In this document: positions 44,147 through 53,027 of the stretch, one piece after another
Numbering within the stretch: position 1 is the stretch's first letter
Layout of the letters: the number at the start of each line of letters is the position of its first letter
Assembly (NCBI GenBank): GCA_963845565.1
Contig: CAWJSJ010000002.1
Location: 2,368,001 to 2,432,000 of the forward strand
DNA from: an uncultured Methylomirabilota bacterium
Lineage (GTDB): Bacteria > Methylomirabilota > Methylomirabilia > Methylomirabilales > 2-02-FULL-66-22
DNA: 64,000 nucleotides
Direction of reading: 5' to 3'
The notes under the pieces: model-generated
What the model was told of the DNA's origin: nothing
The model's database searches: none
Seen by the model: the letters and a program-made list of their open reading frames with translations, nothing else
Made by a program: the position numbers and the translations under genes

Positions 44147-45394
44147 ATGACTGGGACCGCCATCGAGCAGGAAGCACAGCGCCAGCTGGCCATCCTCAAG
44201 GCCAGGTGCGTGGATCTGTTGGTCGAGGAGGAGCTGCACCGAAAGCTCTGCCGTTCGCTGGCGACCCGGACGCCGCTCCGGGTCAAGCTGGGTTTGGACC
44301 CGACCGCGCCCGACCTCCACATCGGCCACACCGTGGTCATCCACAAGCTGCGCGAGTTTCAACTGCTGGGCCATCAGGTCATCTTTCTCATCGGGGACTT
44401 CACCGGACGCATCGGCGATCCCACCGGCCGCTCCGAGACGCGCAAGGCGCTCACCGAGGCTCAGATCGCCCAGAATGCCGAGACCTACAAACGGCAGATC
44501 TTCAAGATCCTGGACCCGCACCAGACGGTGATCGACTACAACAGCCGGTGGGGCAAGACCCTCGGCTCGGAAGGGATCATCAAGCTGGCCGCCCAGTACA
44601 CCGTGGCCCGCATGCTGGAGCGGGACGATTTCCAGAAGCGCTTCGCCGAGGGCCGTCCCATCAGCATCCACGAGTTCCTGTACCCGCTGCTGCAGGGGTA
44701 CGACTCCGTGGCGCTCCAGGCCGACGTGGAGCTCGGCGGGACCGACCAGAAGTTCAATCTGCTGGTCGGCCGAGAGTTGCAGCGCGAAGCCGGCCAGGAG
44801 CCACAGGTCATCATGACGCTGCCGATCCTGGAAGGGCTCGACGGCGCGCAGAAGATGAGCAAGAGCCTGGGAAACTACATCGGGATCGACGAGCCCCCCC
44901 AGGCCATTTTCGGGAAGGCGATGTCCATCCCCGACGCGCTGATCGTGCGGTACATGGAGCTGGCGACCGCCATCGCGCGCGACGAGATCGCGGCGATGGC
45001 GAAGGGCCTGGCGAGCGAGGCGGCGAATCCGCGCGACGCCAAGGTGCGCCTTGCCAAGGCGCTGGTAACGCAGTACCATTCGGCCGAGGCCGCAGAGGAG
45101 GCGGCGCGCTGGTTCGCGCAGACCTTCAGCGCCCGGCAATTCCCCGATGACGCGGAGGTTGTGCGCGTGGACTCGGGAGCCCTCGAAGCCGACGGGCAGG
45201 TGGGAATTGCCCGCTTGATCGTCGTGTGCGGCAAGGGGGCAATCAGCAGCTCGGAAGCCGGCCGGCTGGTCGCGCAGGGCGGGGTGAAGGTCGACGGAGA
45301 AGCCATTTCCGATCGAGAGTCTCGCGTCTCTCTCGACCGCGAGCGGCGCTTGCAGGTCGGCAAGCGCCGTTTCTACAAGGTCTCGAGAGCGTGA
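44147..45394 (+). CDS. tyrS: Tyrosine--tRNA ligase
   Basis: DPTAPDLHIGH, KMSKS, C-terminal S4 domain. Confidence 0.97.
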   Translation: MTGTAIEQEAQRQLAILKARCVDLLVEEELHRKLCRSLATRTPLRVKLGLDPTAPDLHIGHTVVIHKLREFQLLGHQVIFLIGDFTGRIGDPTGRSETRKALTEAQIAQNAETYKRQIFKILDPHQTVIDYNSRWGKTLGSEGIIKLAAQYTVARMLERDDFQKRFAEGRPISIHEFLYPLLQGYDSVALQADVELGGTDQKFNLLVGRELQREAGQEPQVIMTLPILEGLDGAQKMSKSLGNYIGIDEPPQAIFGKAMSIPDALIVRYMELATAIARDEIAAMAKGLASEAANPRDAKVRLAKALVTQYHSAEAAEEAARWFAQTFSARQFPDDAEVVRVDSGALEADGQVGIARLIVVCGKGAISSSEAGRLVAQGGVKVDGEAISDRESRVSLDRERRLQVGKRRFYKVSRA

Positions 45395-45435
45395 CGGCTT
45401 CGCCGAAGGTTCTCGAAATTTCTTTTAAAAAGTAG

Positions 45436-45464
45436 TTGACAAGGTTCGTGCACACGAGTATAAA
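45436..45464 (+). promoter_or_regulatory. rRNA operon promoter
   Basis: TTGACA-N17-TATAAA with AT-rich UP element. Confidence 0.75.
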
Positions 45465-45680
45465 GAGAATCCCACGGCGGGAGGTTCCACGGCTGATGGG
45501 AACCGAAGATCCCGCGGGGACGTTCTAGAAGTGAAGCGGCGGGAGGTTTTTGAGCCCGCCCCTTTTTGTTCTCTGACAACAGAATATCATTGCTACGAGC
45601 TTGTGGGTGGACACATGAGTAATTACACCTCCGTCCGCCAGGACGGGGTGTCCGAGATCTCTCGTAAGAGAGACCGTATA

Positions 45681-47248
<1,568 letters not shown>

Positions 47249-47463
47249 AGCTTGGCCAGTCCCTCGAAAGTTGGACTGTACGGCTTCTGGTCGATTTACC
47301 CCAAGTTGGTAGCAATGATATCTAATACACGCGCGCATCTCTGGTGCGACACGGCGGGGCGGGGAACACTGCTGCCCCGTTGTCTGTCTGGAGACGAGGC
47401 CGAACCGTTGCGCGGCCCGAAGGTAGGCCAGCGGCTGCTGCGGTGGCGCTTCGTCGGTCGCGG

Positions 47464-47540
47464 GGGCCTTTAGCTCAGCTGGCTAGAGCGCACGCTTGAT
47501 AAGCGTGAGGTCCCTGGTTCGATCCCAGGAAGGCCCACCA
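47464..47540 (+). tRNA. tRNA-Ile(GAT)
   Basis: Cloverleaf in the 16S-23S spacer, anticodon GAT. Confidence 0.96.
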
Positions 47541-47618
47541 CAGGAATTGACGATTGACGATTGACGATTTTCGATTGTTCAATCGGCAATCAAAAATCGG
47601 CAATCGGAAATTTACTGT

Positions 47619-47694
47619 GGGGATGTAGCTCAGTTGGGAGAGCACCTGCTTTGCAAGCAGGGGGTCAGCGGTTCGATTCCGCTCATCTCCACCA
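47619..47694 (+). tRNA. tRNA-Ala(TGC)
   Basis: Cloverleaf in the 16S-23S spacer, anticodon TGC. Confidence 0.96.
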
Positions 47695-47800
47695 TGAGAG
47701 TGTGCTGCGCGTAAGAGTGTCCCCAGGAACATGTGGGGATTTGCTCTTTGACAACTGAATAGCGATCGGGTGTCTATATTGTTTCTCCGAGCAGAAGTGG

Positions 47801-50826
<3,026 letters not shown>

Positions 50827-50861
50827 ATTTTTCTTCTTTCATTCGATACTTTCGGGAAGCA

Positions 50862-51218
50862 ATGAGACACCCGATTCGCTATTCGTCTTTGCCAATGCGA
50901 TGCGTCGCTTTTGTGCTTGGCTTAAGCGGTACGCTGGTGCTTGGAGCGGACGATGTGTTGCCGGCGAACCAGGGAAAGCCCGAGGTGGCTACCCAGGTTC
51001 AAAAGGCGCCGGTAAAGTCGGCGGGAAAAGCCGATGTGAATACGGCGAGTGTCGACGAGCTCTCGCGACTGCCGGGGATGAACGTTCAGACCGCCGAAAA
51101 GATCATCGGAAATCGTCCGTACCGAAAGCTGGACGAACTGATCACCAAGAAGGTGCTGGGCAAGAAAGAGTTTGCGCAGGTTCGGGAGTATATCGTGATC
51201 AGGTCCGGCAAGAAGTGA
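50862..51218 (+). CDS. ComEA-like helix-hairpin-helix protein with signal peptide, located in the 23S-5S spacer
   Basis: DVNTASVDELSRLPGM..TAEKIIGNRPYRKLDEL; N-terminal hydrophobic segment. Confidence 0.82.
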   Translation: MRHPIRYSSLPMRCVAFVLGLSGTLVLGADDVLPANQGKPEVATQVQKAPVKSAGKADVNTASVDELSRLPGMNVQTAEKIIGNRPYRKLDELITKKVLGKKEFAQVREYIVIRSGKK

Positions 51219-51247
51219 TGTGTCGCGGTTGGCTCGAGTCCTGAAGT

Positions 51248-51364
<117 letters not shown>

Positions 51365-51372
51365 ATTTTTTC

Positions 51373-51416
51373 AAAGGGCCTCATGCGTTTTAAGCATGAG
51401 GCCCTTTGTTTTTCTT
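51373..51416 (+). terminator. rRNA operon terminator
   Basis: aaagggcctcatgc...gcatgaggcccttt followed by T-tract. Confidence 0.85.
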
Positions 51417-51557
51417 ACGGCAGCGGTCTTGCGCGGCACCGGATGGCATTTCTGCCGGATTCTGGCGTGTCCTCGCCAACGCCCTGGCGGGAGATGTCAA
51501 TTGACAGGGATGCAAGCGGTGTGTTAAATACTTGGATCAAAATGGCCGGAAAGACGG

Positions 51558-53027
51558 ATGAAAATCGCCTTCTCTGATACCAGGCAATCGTGGACCTCCC
51601 GGCTTCTCGTCGCGGTTGCGATCGTGACGGGCGCGGTGCTGTGTCTCGCGCCAACGGTTACTGCCGGGCAACCGGACAACTCGCAAAGACCTCCATCCGG
51701 TTCCTCAACACCGCCCCGCGAAACTGTCGCGCCGGTTTCAACCACGGCCGGAATCTCCAAGATCCGAATCGGGAAACACCCGGACTTCACCCGCGTCGTG
51801 CTGGAACTGACCGGGTCATATGAATGGACGATCGAGCAGCCCCCCGGCGGTCCGGTGCGGATCCTGATTCCTGGGGCCGGCGTGGATGCGAGCATCCGTC
51901 GTCTCGAGTTTTCCAGCGGAGTGATCCGGTCGGTACAGACGACGCGACGCGCCAACGGCATTGAAGTGATCTTGGTTTGCCAACCCGCCGGGGTGAAGCT
52001 ACGTACACAGACCCTGACGGAACCGGAACGGTTGGTGGTGGACGTGTCCCTTCCGGCTGCCGGGGAGGAGGGGCGGACGCTGGCACTGGCCGGCGTACCC
52101 CCACCAGGAAACCCGGCCAAGGCCGCCGCTCCGGCGCCGGCGCCGCGCACCGGGTTGGAGAAATCCCCCGCTTCAGAGGCTCCCACTCCTGAACCGGCGG
52201 ATCGGGCGGCGCGTATCCCCGCACCCCTGGGAAGCGCGGGGAAGGAGGCGGCCGGGGGGAGCGGGACGGGTGCAACGGCATTGCCGGACCGGGACGGTAC
52301 CAGAAAACCGTTGACGATCGTCCTCGACCCCGGCCACGGCGGACACGACACGGGCGCCATTGGGCCGACCGGCTTGATGGAGAAGGACGTGGTGCTGGAC
52401 CTGGGGTTCCGACTCCGGCGCCTGTTGCAGGACCGGCTCGGCGTCCGGGTGTTGATGACCCGGACCGAGGACGAGTTCGTGTCGCTCGCCGACCGGAGCG
52501 CCTTTGCCAATCGCGCCAAAGCGGACTTTCTGATCAGTCTGCACGTGAACGCGGCCAGCAAACGGGGAGCCGTCGGGTTCGAGACGTTCTTCTTCGCGCG
52601 TGAGCCGTCCGATAACGACGCGCGCGCCTCGGCGCAGCGGGAGAACCTGGTGGTCGAGGGCAACGGGGCGGGTGGGAACGACTTGGAGGCCTTGCTCAAG
52701 ACCACGCTCGCCGACATGGCGGTGACTCGCGATATCAAAGAATCGAGCAATCTGGCGGAACGCCTCCTGGCGTCCCTGGAGAAGATCCTGCGGGTCGACA
52801 ATCGCGGGGTCAAGTCCGGTCCGTTCTACGTCCTTGCCACAGCGGCCATGCCCGCCGTCTTGGTGGAGAGCGCGTTCATCACGAATCCCAAAGAGGAGCG
52901 AAAGCTCCAACGCGAGGAACACCGGCAGCGGATCGCCGACGCGCTGTATGAGGGGATTGCTGCGTACAAGGTCCGCTACGAGCAGCGACTGGGCTTGCGG
53001 ACCGTCCCGGCCGGCGTCGGGTCCTGA
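51558..53027 (+). CDS. N-acetylmuramoyl-L-alanine amidase with AMIN-like domain
   Basis: IVLDPGHGGHD, EKDVVL, ISLHVNA, PAVLVESAFITN. Confidence 0.92.
   Translation: MKIAFSDTRQSWTSRLLVAVAIVTGAVLCLAPTVTAGQPDNSQRPPSGSSTPPRETVAPVSTTAGISKIRIGKHPDFTRVVLELTGSYEWTIEQPPGGPVRILIPGAGVDASIRRLEFSSGVIRSVQTTRRANGIEVILVCQPAGVKLRTQTLTEPERLVVDVSLPAAGEEGRTLALAGVPPPGNPAKAAAPAPAPRTGLEKSPASEAPTPEPADRAARIPAPLGSAGKEAAGGSGTGATALPDRDGTRKPLTIVLDPGHGGHDTGAIGPTGLMEKDVVLDLGFRLRRLLQDRLGVRVLMTRTEDEFVSLADRSAFANRAKADFLISLHVNAASKRGAVGFETFFFAREPSDNDARASAQRENLVVEGNGAGGNDLEALLKTTLADMAVTRDIKESSNLAERLLASLEKILRVDNRGVKSGPFYVLATAAMPAVLVESAFITNPKEERKLQREEHRQRIADALYEGIAAYKVRYEQRLGLRTVPAGVGS

Follow-up and report, generated by a model that had tools for sequence, protein, structure and literature searches.

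How does a protein-coding gene come to lie within a ribosomal RNA (rRNA) operon, in the spacer between 23S and 5S, and how might it be expressed from there? The question is raised by a stretch of 64,000 nucleotides (nt) from an uncultured Methylomirabilota bacterium (assembly GCA_963845565.1, contig CAWJSJ010000002.1, forward-strand positions 2,368,001 to 2,432,000), which we call the window. Between the Rfam borders of its 23S and 5S genes the spacer measures 422 nt (50827-51248), in line with the figure of about 420 nt in a preliminary description of this DNA, and it houses a gene for a small, predicted exported protein with a helix-hairpin-helix (HhH) domain of the ComEA type. The 23S-5S spacer is by textbook account non-coding RNA that is trimmed off; here it holds a protein gene under selection. 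What is new is an ancient, selected ComEA-like gene between 23S and 5S in the Methylomirabilales, a lineage that includes the well-studied methane oxidiser Candidatus (Ca.) Methylomirabilis oxyfera. Our literature search turned up no publication on a gene lying between 23S and 5S, either in the Methylomirabilota or in any other group.

Conservation of the gene and of its position

A protein search of 61 related genomes gave matches in 30, and the relatives with the best homologue loci belong to the Methylomirabilales, of the NC10 phylum. Comparison of their rrn loci, a check proposed in the preliminary description, placed 5S directly downstream of the gene in 21 of the 21 best loci (L003-L023; expectation value, E, at most 5e-16; own genome excluded). 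The 3' end of 23S lies upstream in 19 of them, and the sequence of the remaining two does not reach the 23S side. To find the same gene in the same slot 21 times out of 21 is far beyond chance. None of the eight loci with weak matches (L024-L031) carries rRNA, and none of the matches outside the phylum (L055-L058) is linked to it. The order 16S-tRNA-tRNA-23S-gene-5S, whole or as far as the end of the contig, was seen in all eight loci that were extended, including those of two single-contig genomes. One genome, G042, encodes a protein with the same sequence as one that bears the name of Ca. M. oxyfera.

For a survey of the whole class, coordinates from a profile search were matched to those from a 5S search in 151 genomes. 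The tallies are samples, as metagenome-assembled genomes (MAGs) often come without assembled rRNA; the automatic ones count in four genomes with an "unpublished" flag, and nothing claimed here depends on those four. The results were as follows.

f1 (the window's genus): gene adjoins 5S in 10 of 12 genomes with a complete 5S; the exceptions are G012 and G013
f7: gene adjoins 5S in 12 of 13; the 13th contig stops at 5S
f2: gene adjoins 5S in 1 of 1
f9: gene adjoins 5S in 1 of 1 (G064)
f4: gene-less spacers in 4 of 4 examined, 57-65 nt
f5: gene-less spacers in 2 of 2 examined, about 57 nt
f8: gene-less spacers in 5 of 5 examined, 61-100 nt
f10: gene-less spacers in 3 of 3 examined, about 70 nt

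The gene is common to at least four families. A 23S tree of 17 sequences, which does not include f2 and whose topology conflicts with the order labels of the genomes, contains one split, with support 92, that separates the bearers f1, f7 and f9 from the naturally gene-less f4, f5, f8 and f10. Because all bearers stand on one side of this split, the tree is compatible with one ancient gain. The gene has occupied the 23S-5S slot since before at least three families diverged, and the idea that it might be a recent insertion separating 5S from the rest of the operon is not supported.

The two exceptions in the window's genus represent recent losses. G012 is the closest sampled relative of the window in the 23S tree (support 100); its spacer of 76 nt keeps the strand of the 23S processing stem described below and lacks the gene. 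The 160-nt spacer of G013 keeps a remnant, made up of ATGCGACGC, then a premature TAG, then a fragment encoding KQFARIRD. Around this remnant (L061, G013:C290) the stem-base sequence TCGCTATTC forms a direct repeat, one copy after the stem and one just before 5S, which may be a trace of the deletion event. At the closest homologue, L006 (G009:C23:1-1833, about 14-336), the frame is split near the start of the HhH domain and identity to the window's protein is 79% over the C-terminal 58 residues; either the gene is a pseudogene with a frameshift here, or the assembly is wrong at this contig start.

The reading frame is intact in 21 of 22 extracted loci, at a protein identity to the window's protein of only 32-47%. 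Each of the 21 frames begins with M-[KR]-[KR], continues with some 15-20 hydrophobic residues (a putative Sec-type N-terminus, recognized by inspection) and leads, through a variable linker, to a conserved HhH domain. The ratio of nonsynonymous to synonymous substitution rates (dN/dS), also proposed as a check, was 0.16 for the domain in the window's genus and 0.11 in f7, against 0.70 and 0.53, respectively, for the N-terminus and linker. Differences in the domain at codon positions 1, 2 and 3 amount to 0.30, 0.19 and 0.57 in the genus and to 0.21, 0.10 and 0.55 in f7; synonymous sites are near saturation and the third position dominates the variation. The gene is real and under purifying selection.

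Organization of the rrn operon

The features of the window's operon, all on the + strand, are listed below.

45051..45079, +, promoter-like site 5' of 16S, candidate rrn promoter (consensus match only, TTGCCA-17-TACCAT, 9/12)
45681..47242, +, 16S rRNA (Rfam RF00177, 1611.5 bits)
47464..47540, +, tRNA-Ile (GAT) (ARAGORN; Rfam tRNA)
47619..47694, +, tRNA-Ala (TGC) (ARAGORN; Rfam tRNA)
47743..47754, +, boxA-like element GCTCTTTGACAA (exact match, directly 5' of the 23S stem)
47757..47800, +, 23S processing stem, 5' strand (pairs with 50827-50884; dimer fold -93.7 kcal/mol)
47801..50826, +, 23S rRNA, full length (Rfam RF02541, 2947.2 bits)
50827..50884, +, 23S processing stem, 3' strand, which includes ATG 50862 (co-fold of the 23S flanks; nucleotide conservation)
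50891..50906, +, predicted bracket helix, 5' strand GCCAAUGCGAUGCGUC, which holds the start codon (minimum free energy fold; duplex tests)
50895..51218, +, predicted gene for a 107-residue exported HhH (ComEA-like) protein (Pfam HHH_3; conserved start; dN/dS)
51217..51233, +, predicted bracket helix, 3' strand, which starts within the UGA stop (minimum free energy fold; duplex tests)
51249..51365, +, 5S rRNA (Rfam RF00001, 103.4 bits)
51372..51408, +, intrinsic terminator hairpin, then T-run (15 pairs, 9 of them G-C, then TTTTTCTT)

The order is 16S, tRNA-Ile, tRNA-Ala, 23S, the gene, 5S and terminator. The assembly, 5.36 Mb in six contigs, contains one 5S match and hence a single rrn operon, which lies 2.4 Mb into its contig. 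With up to one mismatch allowed, 0.11 matches to the boxA-like sequence would be expected in the window; the element is present in eight of nine operon leaders, the row for L043 ending too early to show it, and with Escherichia coli rrn in mind we take it to be the rrn antitermination boxA. The spacer between the two tRNA genes (47541-47618) is filled with short tandem-like repeats, TTGACGA three times and then units resembling AATCGGCAATC. The first gene 3' of the terminator is an open reading frame (ORF) of 489 residues (51558-53027, +) with an N-terminal hydrophobic segment.

The 23S processing stem and the start of the gene

The first 58 nt of the spacer form the 3' strand of a covarying 23S processing stem. 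In the window, 47757-47775 is a near-exact reverse complement of 50865-50884, and the 23S flanks co-fold at -72 to -113 kcal/mol in nine of nine operons. Pairs between the flanks were scored in two groups, as follows.

Window's genus, five operons: 43 inter-flank pairs, of which 29 invariant, 7 with one-sided changes and 6 compensatory; 208 of 214 cells paired
f7, four operons: 33 inter-flank pairs, of which 22 invariant, 2 with one-sided changes and 2 compensatory; 124 of 132 cells paired

For the 23S stem of G064 the terminal helix alone is clear.

These pairings bear on where translation begins. The preliminary description reported an intact, co-oriented ORF of 118 residues with a hydrophobic leader. 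The frame (50862..51218, +) and its hydrophobic N-terminus are both present, and what needs revision is the upstream boundary: because 50827-50884 is a strand of the 23S stem, not a coding leader, and because the start motif ATGCGAYGC is conserved in the window's genus, translation probably begins not at 50862 but at ATG 50895, 10 nt beyond the stem, for a product of 107 residues. One locus of the genus has TTG at this place and one has ATGCAGCGC. The ACCCGAWTCGCTATTC block upstream of the start is conserved as nucleotides, with the upstream ATGs of relatives out of frame, and is kept in the gene-deleted G012. The same 107-residue call was given to three of the eight members of the protein's 90% cluster. 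There is no obvious Shine-Dalgarno sequence before the gene's AUG. Motifs of this type precede 38 of 73 long ORFs, versus about 75% expected by chance, so loose is the motif rule, and the comparison is uninformative.

The gene begins elsewhere relative to the stem in f7, where the AUG sits in an internal loop of the 23S stem and codons 3-5 (CGG ATC GC) pair with the 23S leader as the basal helix. One stem sequence is non-coding in the window's genus and coding in f7. A further observation in f7 concerns the region 15-45 nt upstream of 5S, where 11 of 11 loci (L011, L014-L023) carry the motif GA[CT]CCGGA[AG][AC]GC, with variants. The motif is similar to the 23S leader strand GATCCGGG; base-pairing between the motif and codons 2-5 of the gene is conceivable, though it found no statistical support.

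A second helix around the reading frame

Folding of 50827-51420 (z -4.44) paired the start region with the region just past the stop codon. The predicted helix joins 50891-50906, which holds the AUG, to 51217-51233, which begins inside the UGA; we refer to it as the bracket helix. The window's duplex reaches -26 to -27.7 kcal/mol, a level to which 6 of 300 shuffles also descend, and for five of nine loci of the window's genus no more than 10 of 300 shuffles match the native pairing. On the MAFFT alignment the post-stop strand falls out of register, so column covariation was dropped in favour of a register-free control in which each start region was paired with each post-stop strand, cognate versus non-cognate. 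In the window's genus the cognate mean is -21.1 kcal/mol, a value attained in 7 of 20,000 permutations, versus -16.4 for non-cognate pairs. Immediately 5' of the AUG the sequence varies between species, and the partner bases vary to match. In seven of the nine loci the 3' strand has its beginning within 0-3 nt of the stop codon's first base. In the window's genus, then, a second predicted helix that covaries between species loops out exactly the ORF. With this helix closed, the distance from the base of the 23S stem to 5S would be 6 + 15 = 21 nt, versus 20 nt in the gene-less G012. The dinucleotide TT stands immediately 5' of 5S in 22 of 22 gene-bearing loci, and the gene-less spacers examined also end in T.

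Transcription

The layout of the operon makes it most likely that the gene is co-transcribed with the rRNA precursor. Promoters and terminators were sought by consensus matching over 45000-52000, a scan that for promoters is confined to the sigma-70-like type. No promoter-like or terminator-like site was found by it on the + strand between the window's 23S and 5S; the sole + strand promoter-like site is the one upstream of 16S. The scan agrees with the earlier observation that no terminator follows 23S and that a strong one follows 5S. In the relative L044 no terminator-like site was found between 23S and the gene, and in L043, of f7, nothing but the terminal helix of 23S came into question. 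Behind 5S, 22 of 22 loci have a hairpin and T-run, with stem sequences that differ among the loci. Since the only 5S gene lies downstream of the ORF, transcription of 5S has to pass through the ORF, barring a hidden promoter within it.

At the end of 23S (50812-50826 in the window, and equivalents) the invariant 3' terminal TTGACC resembles a -35 hexamer, and the spacer that follows is A/T-rich. In L044 this TTGACC and a TATCAT make a promoter-like match of 10/12; no such pair was found in L043.

Among public RNA runs, none matched half or more of the sampled words of the stretch. Four metatranscriptome runs from four studies (X1-X4) provided assembled contigs, which show neither ends nor single transcripts. 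A contig from X1 covers 50732-51056 with 17 differences and bridges the end of 23S into the gene; two from X2 cover 50795-50880, with 0 and 4 differences, and bridge the end of 23S into the spacer. One from X3 covers 51125-51275, passing from the gene 27 nt into 5S, under the 31-nt rule for bridging. The body of the ORF is covered in all four runs. Contigs from X2 and X4 also contain joints (side 26-35) that skip 50812-51251, 50823-51261 and 50824-51250; these probably stem from relatives with short spacers and were not used as evidence, and neither were depth values or the uncovered portions of the stretch.

The proposal that the gene rides on the pre-rRNA transcript is thus supported, short of proof. 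The gene abuts the 23S stem, none of the three loci scanned (the window's and those of two relatives) has a terminator before it, one follows 5S at all 22 loci, the genome's only 5S lies downstream, and RNA-library contigs join 23S and the gene.

The protein and its relatives

The assignment of a ComEA-type HhH domain stands: Pfam HHH_3 matches with E 5.3e-14 and 52.5 bits against a cut-off of 27. This is well above the scores for PsbU, which lie just over the cut-off in Pfam (26.9 vs 24.5) and far below it in NCBIfam (PRK02515, 28.4 vs 85). PsbU does not bind DNA, and NC10 bacteria are regarded as non-phototrophs. A profile search of the PDB returned the ComEA-related protein 2duy of Thermus thermophilus (1.1e-10), Geobacillus ComEA, many PsbU chains and Tex. 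The AlphaFold model has a predicted local distance difference test (pLDDT) of 93-94 over residues 51-100 and is disordered before the domain. Foldseek ranked 2duy first, with a template modelling (TM) score of 0.83 (normalised to target) and a root-mean-square deviation (rmsd) of 1.7 Å over 60 columns; Tex and Geobacillus ComEA (8dss_B, rmsd 1.5 Å over 66) came next, then PsbU chains. The E value of every Foldseek match stays above 0.001, which is no surprise for a domain of such short length. The isoelectric point (pI) of the domain is 9.8-11.2 in the 20 loci computed, the window's row (pI 9.8) being for the whole protein. The second hairpin reads VLGKK or VLGRK in place of the GIG of 2duy.

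The genome also encodes ComEC, DprA and two secretins, all from widespread families, as well as RNase E/G and one match to an RNase III domain (37.9 bits against a cut-off of 35). Its other HHH_3 relatives are a protein in a 226-residue frame, a Tex-like protein and a free-standing small paralogue. The last (G000:C6:6433-6738; L035, L087) has the same architecture of signal peptide, linker and HhH domain and belongs to a clade common in gene-less families; an S-adenosylmethionine (SAM) riboswitch lies about 650 nt downstream of it on the same strand (L035 2330-2442). Across the gene-less families of the class, free-standing look-alikes with this architecture occur often. Two of the matches outside the phylum, L055 (Pacebacteria) and L056 (Acetobacteraceae), are free-standing HhH relatives with an RPY motif, from distant phyla and unlinked to rRNA; the L055 copy is at the end of a 229-residue open frame and so has a longer N-terminal part.

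In a tree of embedded and free-standing proteins (48 rows, 117 columns) the embedded genes do not form one clade in the best topology, which implies three changes. A single embedded clade was not rejected (p-AU, from the approximately unbiased test, 0.177), and the embedded copy of f2 groups with a free-standing clade (98/97). The embedded gene may have arisen by duplication of a free-standing one.

Relation to known systems

A 2001 study by Chen and Gotschlich is said to have found the four Neisseria comE copies beside rrn operons. The window's protein shares with ComEA of Vibrio cholerae, ComE of Neisseria gonorrhoeae and ComE1 of the Pasteurellaceae its small size, a signal peptide and an HhH domain. 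In contrast to ComEA and ComE, it stays under the NCBIfam ComEA thresholds and its second hairpin is atypical; genes for those proteins, unlike the window's, have not been reported between 23S and 5S. Small periplasmic ComEA/ComE proteins of Gram-negative bacteria, equipped with signal peptides, bind DNA without sequence specificity and pull or hold DNA in the periplasm, and N. gonorrhoeae has four comE copies (PMC4147865, PMC2601033).

Protein genes amid the rRNA genes of one locus have a precedent in oral Saccharibacteria, where tRNAs and one to five protein genes, including one for a conserved 79-residue protein, lie between 16S and 23S (PMC7651992). The window resembles these and other members of the candidate phyla radiation (CPR), and also loci with "unlinked" rRNA genes, in having protein coding sequence amid the rRNA genes of a locus; the genes of that kind occupy the 16S-23S spacer in various orientations, whereas the window has one co-oriented gene in the 23S-5S spacer, usually a short one, of a non-CPR phylum. 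Unlike those genes, the window's is wedged between the 23S stem and 5S and appears to be closed by its own helix.

In the standard scheme of processing, RNase III cuts two large stems that flank 16S and 23S (PMC6582327). Like these stems, the bracket helix would be a long-range flank helix around a module, here the ORF; the RNase III stems enclose rRNA or discarded spacer, whereas the bracket helix encloses a protein gene and its cleavage is putative. The intervening sequences (IVS) that RNase III excises from 23S are likewise modules bracketed by flank helices. Messages and stable RNAs are also parted by processing of one transcript in the E. coli tRNA-tufB and secG-leuU operons. There, tRNAs lie at the ends of ordinary operons, whereas the window's gene is inside an rrn operon, between 23S and 5S. 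The known kind that the present case extends is that of protein genes riding on stable-RNA operons.

A model for expression, and its alternatives

We regard it as probable that the gene is driven by the rrn promoter and co-transcribed with the rRNA, that its translation is masked or released by processing, and that its product is a constitutive periplasmic DNA-binding protein coupled to ribosome synthesis. From the rrn promoter, RNA polymerase would transcribe 23S, then the gene, then 5S, and stop at the terminator that follows; read-through to this point would give one message copy per 5S molecule. By cutting the 23S stem, RNase III would leave a gene-5S RNA, in which the bracket helix would mask the AUG until melted or itself cut. 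Cutting of the helix would free a near-leaderless mRNA plus pre-5S. Expression would thereby be damped at translation, and the protein would probably function in DNA uptake or retention. We share the suggestion of the preliminary description that such an arrangement would tie the protein to growth rate. Both the excision or unmasking of the helix by processing and the role in DNA uptake are what we infer from the sequence.

One can tentatively envision a bolder version, in which the rrn operon is programmed to yield a fourth product. This would be an mRNA module, sealed by a helix of its own and excised or unmasked through the RNase III-based pathway that also frees the rRNAs. Message would be made one to one with ribosome production, translation would be gated by the processing of pre-rRNA, and a periplasmic DNA receptor would be kept constitutively present.

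A number of observations weigh against our proposal. The gene is dispensable, having been deleted in G012 and G013. The bracket helix does no better than shuffles in four of the nine loci of the window's genus, and it is without support in f7 (3,378 of 20,000 permutations), in f2 and in G064, in the last of which only about 10 nt follow the stop codon; it is not a universal requirement of the arrangement. A sigma-70-like site made of the 23S terminal TTGACC as -35 and a -10 in the spacer is present in 5 of 20 relatives' loci, the window's not among them. All RNA evidence consists of assembled metatranscriptome contigs, to which DNA carry-over may have contributed; the bridging X1 contig, only about 95% identical, comes from a relative; and the transcript start, end and cleavage sites proposed here are predictions. 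On the side of the protein, the scores for NCBIfam TIGR01259 (comE, 26.2 vs 152.35 bits) and TIGR00426 (ComEA HhH region, 17.8 vs 53.1) are low, there is also a resemblance to PsbU, the ComEC, DprA and secretin families match in non-competent control genomes as well, and the HHH_3 protein in the 226-residue frame may be the canonical ComEA.

The first alternative accepts co-transcription and makes of the bracket helix a structural clamp for 23S and 5S maturation, which would limit translation by hiding the AUG, without being cut; the mRNA would then be the uncut gene-5S precursor or an RNase E product. We give this a minority chance. A closed-helix gap of 21 nt, against 20 nt in gene-less G012, suits a clamp, as do the covering of the AUG, the TT kept 5' of 5S in 22 of 22 loci and the presence of RNase E/G in the genome. 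A helix of about 16 bp is, however, also a plausible substrate for RNase III, and f7 manages without it; the present data fit clamping and RNase III excision alike.

A second alternative, to our mind somewhat doubtful, concerns the product. Instead of an uptake receptor it could be a small HhH protein of the periplasm that makes a PsbU-like protein-protein contact, for example, or acts in the envelope or an extracellular-DNA matrix. A Pfam PsbU score above cut-off, the many PsbU chains matched, the VLGKK/VLGRK hairpin and NCBIfam ComEA scores far under cut-off could all be read in this way; look-alikes are common, and the larger HHH_3 protein could be the true ComEA. However, the top matches in both sequence and fold are of the ComEA type (2duy, 8dss), the domain is strongly basic, and in architecture it equals the periplasmic ComEA/ComE proteins described in PMC4147865.

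It is unlikely that the gene has its own promoter at the junction of 23S and spacer and makes an independent mRNA, with 5S produced by read-through from the gene or from upstream and the position incidental. The preliminary description had named separate promoters and a terminator as what would undo the idea of a shared transcript; none was found in the window, and the five loci mentioned above do have a promoter-like pair, TTGACC followed 17-18 nt on by TATCAT, TATGAT or similar (10/12 in L044). That promoters within rrn operons are known in other bacteria also counts in favour of this possibility. Against it, the match is absent from the window, from L043 of f7 and from 15 of the 20 loci in all; with a -35 that is invariant rRNA sequence and an A/T-rich spacer, chance matches are likely; a single operon must make 5S in step with 23S, so that polymerase crosses the gene anyway; and RNA-library contigs continue from 23S into the spacer.

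Very improbable is that the ORF is an untranslated relic and only the RNA spacer matters. The lack of a clear Shine-Dalgarno sequence, the burial of the AUG in a helix, the losses in G012 and G013 and the frameshift in G009 would agree with it; a domain dN/dS of 0.11-0.16, variation concentrated at third positions and a frame intact in 21 of 22 loci at 32-47% identity do not. Finally, rRNA operons are often misassembled in MAGs, and the preliminary description had allowed for a misassembly at the rRNA repeat; with one 5S in the genome, the locus 2.4 Mb into a large contig, and the layout repeated in RNA-library contigs and in 21 other, independent assemblies, two of them single-contig genomes, the chance of an artefact is negligible.

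Implications

If the gene is co-transcribed, the cell's most heavily transcribed, antitermination-protected unit also bears a message here, and ribosomes have to reach an RNA while it folds and is cut as pre-rRNA. The lineage offers natural comparisons in this respect: one genus has a bracket helix and a start that lies outside the 23S stem, another has its start within the stem, and two genomes show clean deletions. These could be used to learn how the maturation of mRNA and rRNA coexist on one transcript. On the practical side, these genomes will be mis-handled wherever an annotation pipeline or an rRNA-operon amplicon method takes the 23S-5S spacer to be short. If an mRNA module is indeed a fourth programmed product of the operon, it would represent a so far undescribed way to express a protein from pre-rRNA. 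The module is also a possible design for rRNA-coupled gene expression. For the bacteria themselves, should the proposed reading be true, expression of an envelope DNA-binding protein would be hard-wired to ribosome synthesis.

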